NCBI GenBank assembly: GCA_964473825.1
Contig: CAYYQL010000056.1
Span: forward strand, 1-12,087
DNA from: an uncultured archaeon
GTDB taxonomy: Archaea > Asgardarchaeota > Thorarchaeia > Thorarchaeales > Thorarchaeaceae
Reading direction: 5' to 3'
Length of the DNA: 12,087 bases
The number at the start of each line of letters is the position of its first letter. Position 1 is the stretch's first letter. Shown here piece after piece: positions 1 to 10,497 of the stretch. The notes beneath the pieces are model-generated. The model was not told where the DNA came from and searched no databases. It saw only the letters and a program-made list of their open reading frames with translations. Both the position numbers and the translations under genes were made by a program.

Positions 1-56
1 CACCTGACAACCATCTCGAGGAGGTTGAGCAGGCCTTCATCTATTTCATCTGTCAT
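1..56 (-). CDS. vhuU: VhuU-like small peptide (separately encoded C-terminal segment of the [NiFe]-hydrogenase large subunit); 5' part only, runs off the window
   Basis: Not in the ORF track. ATG at 56-54 reads MTDEIDEGLLNLLEMVVR followed by a partial TG- codon. This matches the 'E/D-x-x-L-N-x-x-E-M-x-x-R-x-Y-D-P-C/U' helix that precedes the L2 motif in MvhA/VhuU. A GGTGA RBS overlaps the mvhA stop about 10 nt upstream. It is in a different frame from mvhA. Confidence 0.85.
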   Translation of the reverse strand, partial: MTDEIDEGLLNLLEMVVR

Positions 57-69
57 CTTGATTGTTCAC

Positions 70-1386
70 CTATGTCTTGACCATGGGTTCAGGTAGGTCT
101 AATTCCTTGTGTCCTTCCTTCTCGAAGATCAGTTTCGCAGCATCCATGAGACTCTTTTCAATGCCAGCGATGTTATTGTTTGTCGCCACGATGAGATTTG
201 CCTTCGTGATGATTCCCTCCTCATCGCACTCGTAGTTATGTAACAGCGTTCCACGAGGTGCCTCAACTATGCCAACACCCTCGCCTGCTTTTGGTTCCAC
301 ATCAGCGAGTTTGACGTCAGTGCTGACGATATCAGGGTCCTCTAGAAGCGTCTTGATCCATTCAGCAGCCTGAACCATCTCAACAACCCGGGCGTAATGG
401 TAGGCGAATGTGTGATGTGAGGGACGTCCAACGAGTTCACGCATCTCCTCCAGAGCCGCCTGAGCCAAAGGTGTCGCCATCTTATCGGCAACATTGCAGC
501 GAGCGAGAGTATTGGCCCTCCAGATCCCCTCGGGGTATCCGGCGGGTTTGTAGTAGATGTGCGTTGCATAGGAATGGTCAGGTATGTGTTCTCCGTAATA
601 GTCTGTGTAATCCTGCGGTTCAAAGTCTGCTACTATCTCACCGTCAGGGGCCATAACCCGAACGGTGCCGTCATATATATCCAAGACACCATCGTTTGTG
701 AGACCGATGTAGTATGTCGGAGTGACAGCTACCTTGGTGATTACATCAAGATAGTCATTCACGATTGTCTTGGCCAAATCAACGGTCTTGTTGATGTTCT
801 CAAGCATCTCCGGTACTTCGCCAAGCCAATGGTCACGTTCCTCCTCCTTGAGTGGAGTGAGCATTCCGCCGGGTATTGCTGTAGTGGGATGGATGGCTTT
901 TGCTCCGATTGTTCTACAGAGCTCCTGACCAAACTGCATCAGCTTGATTGCCTGGACTGCTACATCAGGCAAATGCTTCAGAACAGCTGCGACATTTCTA
1001 ACTGCCGGGTCTGCGAATGGGCCGAAGACGAAATCGGGGGCGGCGAGCGCGTAGAAATGTATCGCATGAGATGAGAGCTGTTTGGCCTCAATCAGAAGTC
1101 TTCTGAGCTTGATGGCTGCAGGGGGTGGTGTTATGTCCCAAGCATCCTCAACGGTCTTGACCGAAGCAAGGTGATGAGGAATGGGACAGATACCACAGAT
1201 TCTGGGCGCAATCCTGATGGCTTCTTCCATCGGTCGCCCTTCGAGGAACTTCTCAAAGAACCGAGTACTCTGCACATTGAACTGAACATCTTTCACCTTT
1301 CCATCAGTTCCCATCTTCAGCGTCAGTGCTCCGTGTCCCTCGAGACGTGTAACTGGGTCTATCTTGACAACTCTCTCATCGGTCAT
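70..1386 (-). CDS. mvhA: F420-non-reducing (group 3c) [NiFe]-hydrogenase large subunit, VhuA-type (no C-terminal DPCxxC motif)
   Basis: Has IDPVTRLEGH, RFFEKFLEGR, the L1 motif RICGICPIPHH, EAPRGTLLH and ANLIVAT. Ends ...LPEPMVKT with no L2 motif. ATGA overlap with mvhG. Confidence 0.95.
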   Translation of the reverse strand: MTDERVVKIDPVTRLEGHGALTLKMGTDGKVKDVQFNVQSTRFFEKFLEGRPMEEAIRIAPRICGICPIPHHLASVKTVEDAWDITPPPAAIKLRRLLIEAKQLSSHAIHFYALAAPDFVFGPFADPAVRNVAAVLKHLPDVAVQAIKLMQFGQELCRTIGAKAIHPTTAIPGGMLTPLKEEERDHWLGEVPEMLENINKTVDLAKTIVNDYLDVITKVAVTPTYYIGLTNDGVLDIYDGTVRVMAPDGEIVADFEPQDYTDYYGEHIPDHSYATHIYYKPAGYPEGIWRANTLARCNVADKMATPLAQAALEEMRELVGRPSHHTFAYHYARVVEMVQAAEWIKTLLEDPDIVSTDVKLADVEPKAGEGVGIVEAPRGTLLHNYECDEEGIITKANLIVATNNNIAGIEKSLMDAAKLIFEKEGHKELDLPEPMVKT

Positions 1387-2306
1387 TGTTGCTTAGCCTC
1401 CTCTCGTTTGATACGGATGTTTCCTAGATGACTCGTTGCGTATGTGAATCTCCAGAACAATCCAAGAGGATCCTTGACCGTCTGCGTGAGCTCAGCCGGT
1501 TCGAGTGGCGCGTAAGAACCAAGCATTCCTATCCCATTGGCACCCTGGTCCTGCATGATGGGCGGAGGAGGTCCGAAGCATCCACGACACGTTGCGCCCT
1601 TATTCACACATTGCCCCTCACAGAGGCCCCACGTGGCTGAGCCCATGCAGATGTACCCCTGCTCGAGAAGGCATCTATCTGGTTCGGCATTTCCATCAAA
1701 GGGACGCAGAATGTGAGGAATTGGAGTTTCCTGTTTGTCACGATCGCAATAATGACAGACTGTGTGTGGGTCCAGCTCTAGTTCCTTGCCTTGGATGAGT
1801 GACGTAAGAGCAGTATAAATCAAATCGGAAGTCGGAGGACAACCTGGCAGGTAGACGTCAAAGTCTACATACTGGTTGTTCGGCTTTATCACCGCAGCCA
1901 TGGGAGGAACGTTCTCAGTGGGTACTTTACCATTCTGGACAGTCTTGTTGTTTCTGAACTTGACATCATAGCATTCTTCGATATCAGAAAAGTTTGCAAG
2001 ACCGGGTATACCGCCGAAGCATGAGCAAGAACCGAAAGAGATCAGTGTCTTGCATTTCTCTCGCATCAGCTTGAGATTATGAATGTCCTCCTCTGTCCTT
2101 GCAGCTCCCTCATAAAGACCAACATCAATCGACTGGTCCGGATAACTCTCTAGGTGCTTGTGCTTGAAATCTGCAACCGCAGCCCAAAACTTGATGTCAA
2201 GGAGAGGCAAGACCTCTGCCAGACGCAGATGGATGTCAACAAGGCTCTGGAAGCAGCCCCAGCAAGAGGAACCTTGCATCAACGCTACTGAAACCTTGTC
2301 TGTCAC
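1383..2306 (-). CDS. mvhG: F420-non-reducing hydrogenase small Fe-S subunit G
   Basis: Has SCWGC, EGA, GSCSCFGGIPGLAN, LPGCPP, VCHYC, CLLEQGYICMG and CEGQC...CRGCFG. GTG start overlaps the stop of the upstream small ORF (GTGA), with GGAGG upstream. Confidence 0.95.
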   Translation of the reverse strand: MTDKVSVALMQGSSCWGCFQSLVDIHLRLAEVLPLLDIKFWAAVADFKHKHLESYPDQSIDVGLYEGAARTEEDIHNLKLMREKCKTLISFGSCSCFGGIPGLANFSDIEECYDVKFRNNKTVQNGKVPTENVPPMAAVIKPNNQYVDFDVYLPGCPPTSDLIYTALTSLIQGKELELDPHTVCHYCDRDKQETPIPHILRPFDGNAEPDRCLLEQGYICMGSATWGLCEGQCVNKGATCRGCFGPPPPIMQDQGANGIGMLGSYAPLEPAELTQTVKDPLGLFWRFTYATSHLGNIRIKREEAKQQ

Positions 2307-2545
2307 TCTTCTGATGCCTCCGAGAGCTTGTAGACCAACTGATCATCTTCCTCACCAGAAACCGCAACCTCATTCCATCGCATCATCGCTAAGAGGTTCC
2401 AGAGAATCAACTGAGTAGGAAACTCTGTAATCTCCGCAATGGCACTGATAGTCTTTGGTCCGCCTTCTAGAGCCTCGCTGATCGCCTTTCTTTGTTTCCG
2501 TATTTCTCCGCGTTTCTGATCAAAGTACTTCTGAAAGAGACTCAT
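2303..2545 (-). CDS. Small winged helix-turn-helix-like protein (~80 aa)
   Basis: AISEALEGGPKTISAIAEITEFPTQLILWNLLAMMRWNEV...VYKL fits a wHTH pattern. 4-nt overlaps with both mvhD and mvhG. ATG at 2545 lies 7 nt after GGAGG; the alternative ATG is at 2551. Confidence 0.8.
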   Translation of the reverse strand: MSLFQKYFDQKRGEIRKQRKAISEALEGGPKTISAIAEITEFPTQLILWNLLAMMRWNEVAVSGEEDDQLVYKLSEASEE

Positions 2546-2985
2546 TTCCATTCCTCCTGAATCGGTCCGACCTCTTTGACCTGTTCCACCAGCTTCTTGA
2601 CGCCATCGGCAAACACTTGGCCTTCCGATGCGCTAGCCCACTGTAACCTTATTCTCCGGGTGTCAACACCGGCCTGTTCTAAGGCTCGCTCCATCAGCGC
2701 CCATCTTGCCCTGAGCTTCAGATTGCCGCTTGTATAGTGACAATCTCCCGGATGACATCCCGAAACCAGAACACCATCAGCCCCCATATCCAAAGCCGCC
2801 AAGATGAATTCAGGGCTTATACGACCTGTACAGTTCACACGGACTATTCTTGCGTTGGGTGGGTACTGTATTCTACTGGTTCCAGCGAGGTCAGCGCCTG
2901 CATATGAACACCAGTTGCAGCAGTATGCTACGATGCGAGGTGTCCACTCGTGTTCAGATTGGGTCTTTGCCTTAGCTTGGGTCAA
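2542..2985 (-). CDS. mvhD: [2Fe-2S] subunit MvhD/FlpD (hydrogenase-to-HdrA adaptor), all-Cys form
   Basis: Has CCNWCSYAGADLAG, RVNCTGRI, GADGVLVSGCHPGDCHY and WASASEG. TTG start directly after the hdrA stop, with GGAGG upstream. Confidence 0.96.
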   Translation of the reverse strand: MTQAKAKTQSEHEWTPRIVAYCCNWCSYAGADLAGTSRIQYPPNARIVRVNCTGRISPEFILAALDMGADGVLVSGCHPGDCHYTSGNLKLRARWALMERALEQAGVDTRRIRLQWASASEGQVFADGVKKLVEQVKEVGPIQEEWK

Positions 2986-4761
2986 CTACGGACCTCCTTG
3001 TTCTACATCGCTTGGACACAGATACGCTTCGATCATCGCCATGATCTGATTATCTGTAGAATGGTACATGATGATTGCGTTGCTGGGACAAGCGGCAGCA
3101 CACGTACCGCATCCGTGACACTTCGCTTCCGTCACGAAGGCCACAGGGGGGTTGTGTTCCTCATCCATCGATATTGCACCGTATGGACAACCGGTGATAC
3201 ATGTGTGACATGCAGAGCAGAGATCAGAAACAACATGAGAAACAGTCGACTCGATCTCCACCTTTCCACGGGCCATTAGACCCACAGCCTTTGCCGCAGC
3301 GCCACTGGCATCAATGACTGATTCAGAGGCATTCTTTGCAGCCTGAGCCGCTCCAGCAATCATGACTCCTGCAGTGTGAGTTGTAAGCGGAGCCAGTTTG
3401 ATATGCTCTGGATTGAAGAACCCGTCACCGCTTCTGGTTAGGCTGAAGAGACTCGCAGTCTCCGTTACATCCTCAGGGGGAATCATAGCAGTTGCAAGTA
3501 CAATCATGTCGGCATCGAACTCAAGTCTGTCTCCTGATAAGACATCCTTCCAGATGACCCTGATATTCCCATCATCGTCAACATGGACCTTCGGTTTTTC
3601 TTCACGTGGGAACTTCGAGTAGATCACGTGCTTGCTCAATGCAAGTCTATGTATCTCTTCGTGACCTCGACCATAGGTCCGGATGTCCTGGTAGAGAATG
3701 AGTACTTGGTCAACTCGGTCTTTCAAGTCTGCGGATGCCTGTGCTACTGCAGAACAACAATGTCTCGAACAGTGCTCGTGTCCCTTCTTGCCGGGTTCCC
3801 TCGATCCAACGCATCCAACGAACGCTAGCTTCTTCACCAATCTTCCATCACTAGGACGTCTCAATTCTGCTTTTGGCGGAAGCTCTTGGAGTTGAGCCAG
3901 TGTGATTATGTTTTCTGATTGCTCATAGGCATAGTAGCCTTCTGGTTCAAACGGTCTAAATCCGGTGGCAACTACCACTGTGCCCACCTCGACCGTCTTC
4001 ATCTTGTCTGTCTTAAGGTTCTGTATCTTCACAGTGAAATTCCCGATGTATCCATCGAATTCAGCAACCTTGCTGCTGGTCATCACATCGATGAGTTTGT
4101 GTTTCTCAACATGCCTGATGAGTGGTGAGATGACCTGCGCTCCCGATTCGTCAGCAGGAAACAGATGAGTCCATTTCTTTACATGGCCACCCAGCTCAGG
4201 CTCCTTCTCCACAAGGACGGCCTCGAAGCCACGGTCAGCTATGTCCAGTGCAGCCCGCAAACCAGCGATGCCCCCGCCGACTACCAGAGCCCTCGGAGTG
4301 ACGTCAACTTCCTTGATCGGGAGGTACTCGAGTTCTCGAGCTCGTGCTACCGACATGCGAATCAAGTCCCAGGCCTTCTCAGTGGCGGCTTCTGGTTGTC
4401 GCATGTGACACCAGGATACGTGTTCTCTTAGATTCACCTGTTCGAAGAGGTAACGGTTGAGCCCTGCAGCTTCAACAACACGCCTGAACGTTGGTTCGTG
4501 CATCCGTGGGGAGCAGCTTGCAACAACGACCCGGTTGAGGTTCATCTCGTCTATCTTGTCCTTGATCAGCTGTTGTCCCGCATCGGCACACATGAACATC
4601 TCATGAGTGCTGAAGATAACTCCAGGCAGGCTCTTCGCCTTCTCTGCAACCTCTTCCACATCCACTACACCCGCAATATTGTGCCCGCAATGGCAGACAA
4701 ATACTCCAATGCGTGGTTCCGTCTTCTCTGTTGTCTTAACTTTCTCACTGGCTTCTGTCAA
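2986..4761 (-). CDS. hdrA: HdrA-family flavoprotein: N-terminal Fe-S domain + FAD domain + C-terminal 2[4Fe-4S] ferredoxin, no central ferredoxin insert
   Basis: Has RIGVFVCHCG, FMC, ASCSPRMHE, NLREHVSWCH, GGGIAG, CVGSR...HCSRHCC, CSACHTCITGCP and CHGCGTCAAACP. TTG start after GGAGG. Confidence 0.93.
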   Translation of the reverse strand: MTEASEKVKTTEKTEPRIGVFVCHCGHNIAGVVDVEEVAEKAKSLPGVIFSTHEMFMCADAGQQLIKDKIDEMNLNRVVVASCSPRMHEPTFRRVVEAAGLNRYLFEQVNLREHVSWCHMRQPEAATEKAWDLIRMSVARARELEYLPIKEVDVTPRALVVGGGIAGLRAALDIADRGFEAVLVEKEPELGGHVKKWTHLFPADESGAQVISPLIRHVEKHKLIDVMTSSKVAEFDGYIGNFTVKIQNLKTDKMKTVEVGTVVVATGFRPFEPEGYYAYEQSENIITLAQLQELPPKAELRRPSDGRLVKKLAFVGCVGSREPGKKGHEHCSRHCCSAVAQASADLKDRVDQVLILYQDIRTYGRGHEEIHRLALSKHVIYSKFPREEKPKVHVDDDGNIRVIWKDVLSGDRLEFDADMIVLATAMIPPEDVTETASLFSLTRSGDGFFNPEHIKLAPLTTHTAGVMIAGAAQAAKNASESVIDASGAAAKAVGLMARGKVEIESTVSHVVSDLCSACHTCITGCPYGAISMDEEHNPPVAFVTEAKCHGCGTCAAACPSNAIIMYHSTDNQIMAMIEAYLCPSDVEQGGP

Positions 4762-4766
4762 ATTGA

Positions 4767-6068
4767 CTAGCCTCCCTGAGCCAATATTATTGTGGCTTTC
4801 ATCGCAGCTGCACTGCCAGCTGTTACCGAGTCAGGAATGTCCTTGGGACCGTCTGCACAGCCGCATACAAAGATACCAGGCATCTTTGTATCGACAGGCC
4901 CGAAGTAATGGTGTGATACGTCTACGTAGCCGTCTTCACGAACAGACACCCCTAGCTTCTTCGTCATTGTAAGAAGGTCGTCAGGAGGAACGATACCGGG
5001 ACTCAGAACAACAAGGTCATGCTCAACATCCATAGGCTTCGCTGAAAGCGTATCCTCAACTTTTACCGCCAATCGGCCCTTCTTCGTTCTCGTGACTTCT
5101 GCAACCCGACCTCGTACGAAGTTGACACCGAAACGTGTACGGGCCATCTCGTAGAACTCCTCAAACCCCTTTCCAAAGGCACGGATGTCGGCGTAGTAAA
5201 TGTTTACCTCAGCATCTGGTAGGTGTTCCTTTGCCATCACGGCGTTCTTAATCCCGTACATACAACACACCCGTGAACAGTAGGGCACGCCTTTTGCAAC
5301 ATCTCTTGCTCCGACGCACTGGATAAATCCGATAGATTTTGGAATCTTACCATCGCTGAGTCGGATGAGATGTCCATGCGTTGGACCAGCAGCGTTTATC
5401 AGCCGCTCATATTCCATAGCGTCAATAACATCTGGAATCCTAGCGTAACCCAGACGAGGGTAGCGGCTCACATCAAACATCTCATAACCTGTTGCTAACA
5501 CGATCGCGCCGACCTTGAAATCTAGTCGTTCGTCCTGCATTTCCAGATCAATAGCGTCTCTTTCGCACTCGTTTATGCACCGCTTGCATCGTATGCAACT
5601 GTCCATGTCTATCGTGTACACATTTGGTGTAGCCTGTGGAAAGGGGGTATAGATTGCCTTTCTTATGCCGAGACCGCGGTCAAACTCATTCGGGACTTCA
5701 ACCGGACATACCGCAGTACAATCTCCACAACCAGCACATTTCTCTTCATCAACGTAGCGAGAGCGCTTGATTACAGTAACCCTGAAATCCCCAACCTTCC
5801 CTGAAACGGCCTCTAAATCCGCGTTCGTAATCAGCTCGATATTAGGATGGCGGGAGACCTCACTCAGTCGTGGTGTGAGTATGCATGCCGAACAGTCAAG
5901 AGTGGGAAATGTTTTGTCCAATTGAGCCATTCTACCGCCGATGGATGGTGACTTCTCAAGTAGATATACTTTGTATCCTTGATTTGCGATGTCTAGAGCT
6001 GCCTGCATTCCAGCAACTCCGCCTCCCACTACTAATGCGCTGTTATTGGGTTTCTCGTCTGACATCAT
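4767..6068 (-). CDS. hdrA: Short HdrA-family flavoprotein: FAD domain + central 2[4Fe-4S] ferredoxin, lacking N- and C-terminal Fe-S domains
   Basis: Has GGGVAG, GGRMAQLDKTFPTLDCSAC, CAGCGDCTAVCP, CIRCKRCINEC, EYERL, QCVGAR...YCSRVCCMYGIK and GPKDIPDSV. ATGA overlap with hdrB. Confidence 0.93.
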   Translation of the reverse strand: MMSDEKPNNSALVVGGGVAGMQAALDIANQGYKVYLLEKSPSIGGRMAQLDKTFPTLDCSACILTPRLSEVSRHPNIELITNADLEAVSGKVGDFRVTVIKRSRYVDEEKCAGCGDCTAVCPVEVPNEFDRGLGIRKAIYTPFPQATPNVYTIDMDSCIRCKRCINECERDAIDLEMQDERLDFKVGAIVLATGYEMFDVSRYPRLGYARIPDVIDAMEYERLINAAGPTHGHLIRLSDGKIPKSIGFIQCVGARDVAKGVPYCSRVCCMYGIKNAVMAKEHLPDAEVNIYYADIRAFGKGFEEFYEMARTRFGVNFVRGRVAEVTRTKKGRLAVKVEDTLSAKPMDVEHDLVVLSPGIVPPDDLLTMTKKLGVSVREDGYVDVSHHYFGPVDTKMPGIFVCGCADGPKDIPDSVTAGSAAAMKATIILAQGG

Positions 6069-6943
6069 CTAGCCTCCGCCATCGATGCGAAGATACCATC
6101 TGGAGGTATCTTGTTGAGATACGTTCCAAGACTGTCTGCGTCAATCCCAATGGCAGGTCCAAGAAACTGGGGAAGAGTAAGAACGGGAACTCTTTTCTGC
6201 GGCTCCATTCCTTCACCAAACTGAACTTGAGTAAGCTGAATATCACAGAACACACAGGCCGTGACCAAGCCCTGCACATCAGCATCCTGAAGGTTATTGA
6301 TTTTCTCCATTCCGATCTTGTTCGCAACGGACTCGTCAACTGCAAGCATCGGCCCACCACAGCATCTTGTCTTTCCAATATAGTCTACAGGTGTGGCACC
6401 AGCTATTCTGATGATCCGATCAATGATTGTTGGGTTCTCGGGGTCGTCAACCTGAACAATCTCATACGGCCTTGTTACGTGGCACCCATAGTGAGCCGCT
6501 AGCCTGATTCCATTGTAGGGTCGAACGATGGCCTCTTCAATTGCATTGTAGCCAATATCTTCCTGGAAGATTTGCAGGAGATGCTTGACACGAATGTTGC
6601 CAGTGTACTCTAGGCCTTCTTCCTTCAAGAGATCATTTACTTCTGCACGAAGATATCGGTCCGAGTCAAGTTCATGTTTTACTGTCTTCAATGATCCCGA
6701 GCAGGCACCACAGACCGCCAGTATATCCAGACCCTCTCGCTCTGCAAGTGCAAGAATCCGACCACTAAGTGCTGCAAATGCTGGCCTGCTTAGAGACTCA
6801 ACGTACTGAGCTCCACAGCAATTTGCATCCTTCATAGTAGTGAGTTCGATACCAAATTTCCCAAGAACAGCTCTCACGGATGCTTCGTATGCGGGAAGCC
6901 GTACGGGAGTCGTGCAACCAGTGTAAAGCATGAACTCTCTCAT
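6065..6943 (-). CDS. hdrB: Heterodisulfide reductase subunit B (two CCG domains)
   Basis: Has YTGC...CCG...CGAC and HYGCH...CCGG...ACVFC. TAATG overlap with hdrC. Confidence 0.96.
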   Translation of the reverse strand: MREFMLYTGCTTPVRLPAYEASVRAVLGKFGIELTTMKDANCCGAQYVESLSRPAFAALSGRILALAEREGLDILAVCGACSGSLKTVKHELDSDRYLRAEVNDLLKEEGLEYTGNIRVKHLLQIFQEDIGYNAIEEAIVRPYNGIRLAAHYGCHVTRPYEIVQVDDPENPTIIDRIIRIAGATPVDYIGKTRCCGGPMLAVDESVANKIGMEKINNLQDADVQGLVTACVFCDIQLTQVQFGEGMEPQKRVPVLTLPQFLGPAIGIDADSLGTYLNKIPPDGIFASMAEAR

Positions 6944-7464
6944 TACTCTACGTCCTCCTTGAAGTACTTCTCCTTCACTCTCTGAACGAAGTCGTGATTC
7001 CAGTTCAGCTCTGTGTCAAGGCCCAGGTCATCTCGGTCGTCTTCAACGAAGTCGCTGTATGCTTCCTTCAGCATCCAGCCGTCCTTTAGGACGATGCCTG
7101 TAGTACTCTTGAATACATTTGGAATCTTGCCTTCTCTTGATGCTATCTTTCTCACTGCACCAAAGATTTCGGGCAGACTCACACCTTCCTGACATCGCTC
7201 CTCACATAGCCGGCAGGTCATGCACAACCATGGTAGGTCGCTGTTCAACACTTCTTCGCGTTTTCCGAGGAGTATCTTCTGAATCAGTCGTCGGGGTCTG
7301 TATCGGTCGGTGTATTTGGCTACAAGACAGCTTGCAGTACACATACCGCACTGGATACATTTGGTGATATCCTCCCCGCCGGGTTCGCTGGATAACTCCT
7401 CAGAGAAATCTGAACTCGGATGATGCAAAGACGGTTGCTTCAGCTCACCTTTTGTTTCAACCAT
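6943..7464 (-). CDS. hdrC: Heterodisulfide reductase subunit C (2[4Fe-4S])
   Basis: Has CIQCGMCTASC, PRRLI and WLCMTCRLCEERC. Directly upstream of hdrB. Confidence 0.94.
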   Translation of the reverse strand: MVETKGELKQPSLHHPSSDFSEELSSEPGGEDITKCIQCGMCTASCLVAKYTDRYRPRRLIQKILLGKREEVLNSDLPWLCMTCRLCEERCQEGVSLPEIFGAVRKIASREGKIPNVFKSTTGIVLKDGWMLKEAYSDFVEDDRDDLGLDTELNWNHDFVQRVKEKYFKEDVE

Positions 7465-7743: not shown

Positions 7744-10497
7744 TTAACTCTTCTCTTGATATTTGTTAAGGATGATAGTCGCTCTCATCGCTGCCGCACT
7801 ACCAGCCGATACTGAATCAGGAATGTCCTTGGGCCCATCTGCGCATCCGCAAACAAAGACACCAGCAAGCTTTGTGTCCACCGGGGTAATAACCCGGTCA
7901 GCCACATCTATGTACCCATCAATTGCCAGATCCATACCCAGCTCTACAACCATATCGCTCATTCCCTCTGGCGGTTGAATGCCCGGACTCAGGACAATCA
8001 AATCATGCTCGACATTATGGAGAATCTCCTTTTCTGTATCCTCCACTCTGACAATCAGATTCCCGTTCTCCTCGTTTTCAATAACTTCTGAAACGCGACC
8101 ACGAACGAAGTTCACACCGAAACGTGTACGAGCCATCTCGTAGAACTCTTCAAATCCCTTTCCAAAGGCCCGGATATCAGCGTAGTACATGGTGACCTCA
8201 CAGTCTGGATGGTGCTCTTTCGCCATCACGGCGTTCTTTATCCCGTACATGCAGCACACACGTGAGCAGTAGGGTACACCCTTACTCACATCGCGAGCGC
8301 CGACACATTGAATGAATCCTATATTCTCCGGAATCTTCCCGTCGCTGAGGCGAACAAGATGCCCCTTGGTGGGCCCAGCCGCGTTGATGAGGCGCTCGTA
8401 TTCCATGGCGTGGATAACATTGGCGTACTTGCCGTAGCCGTACTGCGGATACCGTGACACATCGAAGAGCTTGTACCCTGTTGCCAGGACAATGGCTCCG
8501 ACATCGAGGTCAAGTATCTCATCCTTCATGGAGTGATCGATTGCCTCACGGGTGCAAGCATCTACACAAAGCTTACACTCGCAACAATTGGCACACCCAA
8601 GACAGCGCTCAGATTCAAGGCGAGCCACTTCCTCGGTGAAGCCTAGTTCCACCTCAGCAAAGTTGTTACATCGCGAGGCTAGCCCTTGCTTCGGCATCAC
8701 AGCGCCCTTTGACTGTTCTTTGTGGATGGTATCAACCTCATAAGACTGTACACGGTGCAGAGGTTCGGCCCTGCCCTCTTCAATGGAAACTCCTCTTAGG
8801 TAACGATCGATAGACTCCGCAGCCTCTCGCCCCTGACCAACAGCCTTCACAGCTGTAAGCGGTCCTGTGACAATATCTCCTCCAGCGAATACTCCGGGTT
8901 CGCTGCTCTGCATGGTGACTTCATCAATAGTGACAGTGCCCCATTTCGTGCAGTCGCAGTTAGTCTGAACGCCGTGGATGTCTGCTTTCTGGCCTACCGC
9001 CACGATGGCTGTATCTACCGCCATTGTGAACTCAGAGTTCTGGATGGGGATTGGTCTTCTCCTGCCCGAGTAGTCTGGTTCACCCAGGCGCATCTTAACG
9101 CATCTAATTCCAGTGAGTTTTCCATCTGACGACAGGAACTCTGTAGGATTGGTCAAGAGCATGAACTTGACTCCTTCTTCCTTGGCATCCTCCACCTCGC
9201 TTGGAATGGCAGGAATCTCGATGCCTGACCGCCTGTAGACAAGGGTCACCTCTTCGGCGCCTAGACGAACAGCAACTCTGGCAGAGTCAATTGCAGCATC
9301 TCCTCCTCCAACGACCACAACTCTTCTTCCAATCTCTACGTGTTCTCCAGTGTTCACCTTTCTGAGAAACTCCATAGAGTGAAGTACGCCCTCTGAGTCC
9401 TCCCCTCTCACTCCCATATCATTGCATTCCCAGGTTCCAGTAGCGATAAAGACTGCCTTGAATCCTCGTTTCTTCAGTTCTTCAATGGACTCTACTGGAG
9501 TGTTAGGTTTCATCTTGACACCATGGTCGATGACTCTCTGTATCTCCTCATCAAGTATATCGCGAGGCAGCCGATACTCTGGAATCGCATATCTGAGCAG
9601 ACCGCCCAACAGTGGCTCCTTCTCAAAAACGGTAACAGGATATCCCCTGCGAGCCAACTGATACGCACAGCTGATGCCAGCAGGTCCAGAACCAATCACT
9701 GCAACTTGTTCCTCTTTGTCGATGTTGGGCACGACTGGCTCCACCACATCTAGTGTTCGTTCCCAGTCCGCAAGAAACCTGTGCAGGTTCCGTATCTTCA
9801 TGCTCTCATCGAGATAACCACGCTCACACTCACCCTCGCAAAACGATATGCAGACTCTGCCAAGAACGCCAGGAAACGGAATGGAGTCTCTGACAATCTC
9901 AAGAGCCCTAGCATAGTCTCCTGTCTTCATCATCGTGATGAACCCTTGCGCATTGACACGGGCAGGACAGGTGTCTCTGCACGCAGGCTCACCCTTCTTG
10001 TCAATGGTGTACACATTGGGTGTGGCCTGAGGAAACGGAGTGTAGATGGCTTTCCTAAATCCAAGAGATTCATCAAACTCGTTAGGGAGCTCCACCGGAC
10101 ATGTCGACACACAGTCGCCGCATCCTGAACATGCGTCTTCATCAACATACCTCGCCTTCCTCCTAACTCGTACTCGGAAATCGCCCACTTCACCATGAAT
10201 CGACTGGACCTCAGAATACGTGAGTAGTTCGATTCTTGGATGTCGAGAGACGTCACTCAGGCGTGGTGTGAGAATGCACGCGGAACAATCCAGCGTCGGA
10301 AATGTCTTGTCTATTGCCGCCATTCGTCCTCCTATCGAAGGGGACTTCTCAAGCAGATAGGTCTTGAAGCCTTGATCTGCGATGTCAAGCGCGGCCTGCA
10401 TTCCTGCCACCCCGCCGCCTATGACTAGTGCAGCTAGGGTTGTTTCTTCCTCGCGTTCAGTTTGGGAGCTCGGACCAGAAGCCTTCTCGATTGTCAA
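7744..10497 (-). CDS. hdrA: HdrA/HdrL-like flavoprotein: short HdrA core with a ~470-aa GltD/NfnL(SudA)-like FAD/NAD(P)H module inserted in the ferredoxin domain
   Basis: N- and C-terminal parts closely match the 433-aa HdrA. The insert has ACRDTCP, FPGVLGRVCISFCEGEC, VAVIGSGPAG, GGLLRYAIPEYRLP, VVVGGGDAAID, VYRR, GVFAGGD and RCLGC. TTG start after GGAGG. Confidence 0.93.
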   Translation of the reverse strand: MTIEKASGPSSQTEREEETTLAALVIGGGVAGMQAALDIADQGFKTYLLEKSPSIGGRMAAIDKTFPTLDCSACILTPRLSDVSRHPRIELLTYSEVQSIHGEVGDFRVRVRRKARYVDEDACSGCGDCVSTCPVELPNEFDESLGFRKAIYTPFPQATPNVYTIDKKGEPACRDTCPARVNAQGFITMMKTGDYARALEIVRDSIPFPGVLGRVCISFCEGECERGYLDESMKIRNLHRFLADWERTLDVVEPVVPNIDKEEQVAVIGSGPAGISCAYQLARRGYPVTVFEKEPLLGGLLRYAIPEYRLPRDILDEEIQRVIDHGVKMKPNTPVESIEELKKRGFKAVFIATGTWECNDMGVRGEDSEGVLHSMEFLRKVNTGEHVEIGRRVVVVGGGDAAIDSARVAVRLGAEEVTLVYRRSGIEIPAIPSEVEDAKEEGVKFMLLTNPTEFLSSDGKLTGIRCVKMRLGEPDYSGRRRPIPIQNSEFTMAVDTAIVAVGQKADIHGVQTNCDCTKWGTVTIDEVTMQSSEPGVFAGGDIVTGPLTAVKAVGQGREAAESIDRYLRGVSIEEGRAEPLHRVQSYEVDTIHKEQSKGAVMPKQGLASRCNNFAEVELGFTEEVARLESERCLGCANCCECKLCVDACTREAIDHSMKDEILDLDVGAIVLATGYKLFDVSRYPQYGYGKYANVIHAMEYERLINAAGPTKGHLVRLSDGKIPENIGFIQCVGARDVSKGVPYCSRVCCMYGIKNAVMAKEHHPDCEVTMYYADIRAFGKGFEEFYEMARTRFGVNFVRGRVSEVIENEENGNLIVRVEDTEKEILHNVEHDLIVLSPGIQPPEGMSDMVVELGMDLAIDGYIDVADRVITPVDTKLAGVFVCGCADGPKDIPDSVSAGSAAAMRATIILNKYQEKS

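Follow-up and report, generated by a model that had tools for sequence, protein, structure and literature searches.

Which gene supplies the second half of the nickel-iron site of a hydrogenase whose large subunit seems to end too early? This question is raised by the first 12,087 bases (hereafter, the window) of contig C56, which begins at window position 1 and belongs to a Thorarchaeote genome of 3.27 Mb in 103 contigs. The window holds a single minus-strand operon, i.e., genes for a GltD/NfnB-like protein, a small ORF, HdrC-like, HdrB-like, and two HdrA-like proteins, MvhD, an 82-aa ORF, VhuG, VhuA, and, running off the contig edge, vhuU. Large and small hydrogenase subunits, MvhD, and HdrABC-like genes thus occur together, as in the group 3c Mvh/Vhu hydrogenases that are coupled to Hdr. 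The features of the window are as follows:

7744-10497, minus strand: GltD/NfnB-like pyridine-nucleotide oxidoreductase, 917 aa, at the head of the cluster (PF07992 and PF14691)
6943-7464, minus strand: hdrC-like gene, 4Fe-4S dicluster (domain search)
6065-6943, minus strand: hdrB-like gene with CCG domains (PF02754, E 4.6e-25)
4767-6068, minus strand: second HdrA-like flavoprotein, 433 aa (domain search)
2986-4761, minus strand: hdrA-like gene with FAD/NAD oxidoreductase and 4Fe-4S domains, Cys form (..HCSRHCC..), with a non-TGA stop directly before mvhD (domain search, translation)
2542-2985, minus strand: mvhD/vhuD (FlpD), Cys form, no in-frame TGA (PF02662, E 9.6e-51; read-through translation)
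2303-2551, minus strand: 82-aa ORF between mvhD and vhuG, overlapping both (no Pfam match)
1383-2306, minus strand: vhuG/mvhG small subunit, 307 aa, with a 4-nt overlap with vhuA (PF01058 Oxidored_q6, E 1e-20)
70-1386, minus strand: vhuA, large subunit of a split [NiFe(Se)] hydrogenase, 438 aa (ORF and PF00374 match)
57-70, minus strand: vhuA-vhuU spacer, 13 nt (69-57), read directly from the sequence
1-56, minus strand: 5' part of vhuU, codons 1-18 and the first 2 nt of codon 19, continued on contig C40

The 82-aa ORF at 2303-2551 may encode a small protein of winged-helix-like type or else an additional subunit of the hydrogenase. The two HdrA-like genes (433 and 591 aa; 2986-6068) lie in tandem in different frames, and both are Cys forms. 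In Lokiarchaeota, pairs of selenocysteine (Sec)-containing HdrA and VhuD have been reported, whereas HdrA and MvhD of the Thorarchaeote window are Cys forms; Sec in either of them was ruled out, as translation gave ..HCSRHCC.. for HdrA and no in-frame TGA for mvhD. Since HdrA and MvhD are both Cys forms, vhuU is left as the sole predicted selenoprotein gene of the cluster.

VhuA contains the L1 motif (RICGICPIPHH) and terminates in ...LPEPMVKT at a TAG stop (72-70), while no (C/U)xxCxxH segment (the L2 motif) is present in the 438-aa translation of the ORF at 70-1386. A Shine-Dalgarno-like GGTGA (70-66), which overlaps the final base of this stop, represents a putative ribosome-binding site. 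From an ATG at 56-54, in a frame that differs from that of vhuA, the sequence encodes MTDEIDEGLLNLLEMVVR plus 2 nt and then runs off window position 1. The initial annotation had reported this anatomy (L1 motif, missing DPCxxC, 13-nt gap, frame change, and GGTGA), and all of its features and coordinates were found to be correct when the sequence was read again.

The rest of the gene was found on another contig of the same assembly. Window positions 1-55 recur with 100% identity as the final 55 nt of contig C40, which is typical of the k-mer overlap that an assembler would leave. When C56 and C40 are joined, they align as a single block, which reaches about 580 nt beyond the junction, to a contiguous locus (L007) from a closely related MAG whose VhuA protein is 99% identical. 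The grounds for the proposed join are the k-mer overlap and the synteny within the assembly, and it places the remaining features as follows:

C40:22271 to 22122, minus strand: remainder of vhuU with its stop UGA (22124-22122), followed by the SECIS to about 22058 (overlap and collinearity)

It had been predicted that the truncated ORF continues into a YDP(C/U)xxCxxH-type motif with a tail behind it. Once extended beyond position 1 via C40, the ORF does not stop after VVR; read-through gives 50 codons, namely ..VVRCYDC, a TGA (codon 23), LSCGAH, 21 further residues, and a second TGA. The first, in-frame TGA (U) sits at the first Ni-ligand position, and the expected motif takes the form RCYDC-U-LSCGAH, in which the residue before Sec is Cys instead of Pro. 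The 21-residue tail after the His is present as well. It aligns, as a homologous segment, to the C-terminal extension of FrhA, which is cut off by a maturation protease, and would presumably be cleaved likewise. All 50 vhuU loci that were collected from Thor and Loki MAGs encode RC[YF]DC-U-L[SA]C[GA]AH, and nearly all of them terminate in GGAUGA. For the comparisons among Asgard archaea, these 50 loci were used for the peptide, 48 distinct ones for the SECIS alignment, and about 45 for the gene layout.

Homology searches support the identity of both parts. The best PDB match of VhuA is 9sfi_g, the 418-aa VhuA of M. maripaludis (E 1.9e-131), and the full-length MvhA 5odc_F (473 aa) is aligned with VhuA at residues 5-407 only. 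The VhuU peptide could be aligned with the VhuU that was solved as a chain of its own (27 aa; 9sfi_M, E 2.4e-4) and with the C-terminal ends of MvhA (residues 427-452 of 5odc_F) and FrhA. These alignments therefore put the split at the position known from Methanococcales. The structure 9sfi is the M. maripaludis super-assembly of Hdr, Vhu, and Fwd, in which VhuA and VhuU were solved as separate chains (PMC13518236). The closest VhuA loci (80-99% identity) all derive from Thorarchaeota MAGs. As in other VhuU, a short separate ORF follows a large subunit without L2, it shows C-terminal homology including (C/U)xxCxxH, and a UGA occupies the first ligand position. The R-x-Y-D-P that precedes the ligand elsewhere is replaced by RCYDC; as R-x-Y-D-P is a conserved context and no defining ligand, the assignment as VhuU stands.

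Reading of the in-frame UGA as Sec would be directed by a SECIS element, for which a candidate was found at the end of the gene. In the predicted fold, the UGA that stops vhuU lies within the AUGA core of a eukaryote-like SECIS, and the last vhuU codons serve as the 5' arm of its 9-bp lower stem. Above the lower stem follow the AUGA internal loop, an 8-bp upper stem, a 12-nt GUAAA... apical loop, and a 3' GA. With AUGA on the 5' side, GA on the 3' side, an upper stem of 8 bp (range 7-15), and an A-rich loop GUAAAGAUGUGA, the Thor vhuU SECIS is best described as a type I eukaryote-like element (type I lokiSECIS) that is predicted to recode the UGA. AUGA is invariant across the 48 distinct Thor and Loki loci, and two-sided changes occur in all eight upper-stem pairs (8/8). 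In the 48 sequences, 94.8% of cells are paired, versus 16-49% with slid partners, and 96 cells have changed on both sides, compared to a mean of 30.8 after shuffling (0/500 shuffles reached 96). Covariation was scored on an explicit structure, and pairs that RNAalifold placed outside the upper stem were left out. The lower stem can be formed in 48/48 sequences, although the stem sequences of Thor and Loki differ. The SECIS is made a three-way junction by a conserved side hairpin of 4 bp (CCCnGCnnGGG), which is inserted after the 3' GA and before the lower stem, and the closing pair of which covaries (AU 27, GC 9, GU 5, CG 1). This side hairpin is absent from the published description of the lokiSECIS, as far as its text was searchable. 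Together with the side hairpin, the element lies at:

L003:1337-1420, minus strand, equal to C40:22055-22138: SECIS with side hairpin (fold and covariation)
L002:1966-2049, plus strand: SECIS with side hairpin of the second locus on contig C19 (fold and covariation)

A scan of Rfam (E<=1) gave no match to a SECIS family. One match to the C/D-box RNA sR1 (L002:1806-1862, plus strand), overlapping the vhuU start on C19, is probably due to chance (20.1 bits versus a gathering threshold of 45; E 0.2). A bacterial-type SECIS hairpin directly after the UGA (CUCAU..GACGAUGAG) was also considered and dropped in view of SepSecS, the lack of SelA, the 9/4 tRNA-Sec, and the covarying 3' element.

The genome contains the components that would decode such a signal. 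Its tRNA-Sec(UCA) adopts the archaeal/eukaryal 9/4 fold, SepSecS was matched with 404 bits, the gene for EFSec adjoins that of SepSecS, and SelD is present. A PSTK-like gene adjoins that of tRNA-Sec, with a match (132.6 bits) below the NCBIfam cut-off of 290.5. SelA was not found in the genome. The presence of SepSecS, the absence of SelA, and the 9/4 fold of tRNA-Sec point to an archaeal Sec system, and with tRNA-Sec, PSTK (sub-cut-off match), SepSecS, EFSec, and SelD the set corresponds to the archaeal/eukaryal pathway. A gene for a HycI-type maturation endopeptidase was found as well.

The sequence anatomy and homology, the covariation in the SECIS, the genes of the machinery, and the conservation were all directly observed, and on these grounds we consider it very probable that vhuA-vhuU, which closes an hdr-mvhD-vhuG-vhuA operon, encodes a split, Sec-containing [NiFeSe] hydrogenase of group 3c (Mvh/Vhu-type). 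For the Thorarchaeote itself, we infer that Sec is inserted, that the tail is cleaved, and that the hydrogenase is active. Of the two pairs of Ni-Fe ligands, VhuA would provide the first (RICGIC) and vhuU, in trans, the second (U-LS-C-GAH), with the UGA at codon 23 being read as Sec by tRNA-Sec and EFSec under the direction of the SECIS. Following metal insertion, the HycI-type endopeptidase presumably removes the 21-residue tail, and the mature peptide of about 28 residues would stay on VhuA, as in the solved VhuADGU of M. maripaludis.

The split could alternatively be an assembly or sequencing artefact, or mark a pseudogene, if a frameshift and a stop had broken a continuous MvhA and the TGA were a second lesion. 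The feature does lie at a contig end, and MAG assemblies can hold errors. However, the same layout of a stop, a spacer (8-60 nt), a new ATG, and an in-frame TGA recurs in about 45 independent Asgard assemblies, so that neither chance nor assembly error accounts for it; vhuU was detected in 206 of 400 Asgard genomes, with one in-frame TGA inside nearly all of the matches listed; the peptide is conserved past the TGA; and the split recurs at the equivalent place in the solved Methanococcus enzyme. This conservation effectively refutes an artefact, the probability of which we regard as negligible.

Gene callers that apply translation table 11 take the TGA as a true stop, and one JGI protein (P0010) breaks off with ...RCYDC, precisely at the TGA. 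If they were right, a 22-residue peptide would result, and VhuA would be inactive or completed by another protein. This is very unlikely, given that conservation continues after the TGA through LSC[GA]AH and the tail, that a covarying SECIS follows, and that the Sec machinery is complete, the PSTK-like match being below its cut-off. Moreover, the remaining (C/U)xxCxxH segments of the genome are located only in two full-length, distantly related large subunits, both with RAYDP. Recoding of the UGA to Cys or another residue, giving a [NiFe] instead of a [NiFeSe] site, would fit the existence of Cys-type VhuU in some Asgard MAGs (P0003-P0009) and of some genome matches without an internal stop. 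Against this stand tRNA-Sec(UCA), SepSecS, EFSec, SelD, and the SECIS, all of which are present, and there is no sign of genome-wide UGA reassignment, as UGA stops vhuU and other genes; we deem such recoding highly improbable. The Cys-type peptides P0003-P0009, found in Thorarchaeota and 'Sigynarchaeota' MAGs, retain RCYDC, and in P0007 the His is replaced by F (..CSAF..).

A split Sec-containing hydrogenase raises the further point of how many vhuU serve how many vhuA. A search for additional vhuU copies had been suggested, and a second vhuA-vhuU locus was found on contig C19. It is paralogous: its VhuA shares 70% identity, and its vhuU (P0002) is complete, with 50 codons. This brings the genome to exactly two vhuU, each beside one split vhuA. 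The C56/C40 and C19 (L002:1830-2049) loci are near-identical in DNA from the middle of vhuU to the end of the SECIS, whereas their vhuA are only about 70% identical, and this near-identical repeat probably made the assembly break off at window position 1. Two split vhuA occur in 18 genomes of the family (at least 90% complete), 7 of which show a single detectable vhuU (G318, G320, G328, G342, G370, G392, and G393), with MAG incompleteness and repeat collapse as caveats to these copy numbers and to the homogenisation discussed below. In five other genomes, 2.0-2.5 kb of contig past the paralogue-2 vhuA contains no vhuU, and each has a single strong vhuU match. The pattern of two split vhuA with one detectable vhuU was also noted for loci L043, L045, L050, L068, and L070. 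G341, at 97% completeness, carries the vhuA of paralogue 2 and yielded no vhuU match in the genome. In a VhuA tree (quick version; row L052 was disregarded as a frameshifted extraction), the paralogue-2 sequences group in a clade with an SH-aLRT support of 98. Within this clade, an adjacent vhuU is found in two subclades only, and its sequence resembles the paralogue-1 copy of the same genome. This suggests that the vhuU-SECIS module may have been duplicated or gene-converted between loci in some lineages, including the genome studied here. In some Loki loci (L055, L059, L060, and L061, of Promethearchaeota), vhuU is not directly adjacent to vhuA but follows about 1.5 kb downstream, past a ferredoxin/HdrC-like gene (CYQCNRCTDxCP).

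The cysteines in front of Sec are a further trait of these peptides. RC[YF]DC is found in 50/50 Asgard loci, versus RAYDP in the aligned solved VhuU chain, MvhA, FrhA, and NiFe large subunits; to our knowledge, the Pro of the L2 motif before the ligand is near-universal. Cys-type peptides also keep the extra cysteines (RCYDC-C-LSC), which makes the CxxC a property of the detached Asgard peptide that is independent of selenium use. Neither this CxxC before Sec nor the mismatch in copy number between vhuA and vhuU is mentioned in the accessible parts of the literature searched. It is conceivable, albeit doubtful, that the vicinal Cys-Sec/CxxC acts as a redox switch or nickel-handling device of the detached peptide, that one vhuU, its peptide being detached, may serve two VhuA, and that the module has been copied or homogenised. 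Possible additions to the published biology are the cysteines beside Sec, the SECIS side hairpin, and the copy mismatch.

The initial annotation had also warned that gene callers would miss the micro-gene. This is supported by a search of 5.8 billion protein clusters, which returned only 8 short relatives, 7 of them Cys-type and one the JGI call that ends at the TGA. Where vhuU is missed or shortened, the main H2-oxidising, Hdr-coupled hydrogenase of this Thorarchaeote would be scored as being without half of its active site. Correct annotation of vhuU bears on how the metabolism of Asgard archaea is modelled, also in scenarios of eukaryogenesis that build on hydrogen-based syntrophy.

Compared with known systems, the Thorarchaeote enzyme shares its split position with VhuA/VhuU of Methanococcales (M. 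voltae and M. maripaludis; 9sfi chains g and M), with a VhuA of 438 aa instead of 418 aa. In both, a small Sec peptide (predicted in the Thorarchaeote) with UxxCxxH belongs to an Hdr-associated VhuADGU hydrogenase. They differ in that Methanococcus has RAYDP-U and the Thorarchaeote RCYDC-U, and in that the Methanococcus SECIS is of the archaeal GAA_A type in the 3' UTR, whereas that of the Thorarchaeote is AUGA/GA. Unlike Methanococcus, the host is a non-methanogenic Asgard archaeon with HdrA and MvhD in Cys form. Full-length MvhA (5odc_F and 9sw2_F, of Methanothermococcus thermolithotrophicus / Methanothermobacter) represents the same group-3c enzyme as a single polypeptide, with RAYDPC and with Cys where Sec is predicted here.

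The closest counterparts are those of other Asgard archaea. By Mariotti et al. 2016, VhuU of Lokiarchaeota is described as a protein of about 50 aa with one Sec, and the lokiSECIS as consisting of AUGA, a 9-bp stem, an 11-nt A-rich loop, and GA or AA, the AUGA of Loki VhuU.1 serving as stop codon as well (PMC4989117). Huang et al. 2024 assigned the FrhA/MvhA/VhuU family to 68.3% of Sec-using Asgard archaea and G[U/G]AAA loops to the genes of Thorarchaeia (PMC11227280). The supposition that a peptide overlooked by gene callers completes the active site in trans therefore stands in that the L2 ligands reside in vhuU and callers miss or truncate its Sec form, but not as a new arrangement, for it has already been published. 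The vhuA-vhuU split and its SECIS are already known in Asgard archaea, and the present result is an annotation fix and no discovery. According to both papers (PMC4989117, PMC11227280), the same ORF of about 50 codons follows a short large subunit with a single Sec at UxxC. The published Asgard SECIS likewise have an AUGA before an 8-9 bp stem, an A-rich loop (GUAAA in Thorarchaeia), and a 3' GA, with AUGA providing the stop in Loki VhuU.1. The vhuU of this Thorarchaeote and the published Asgard VhuU genes are essentially the same.
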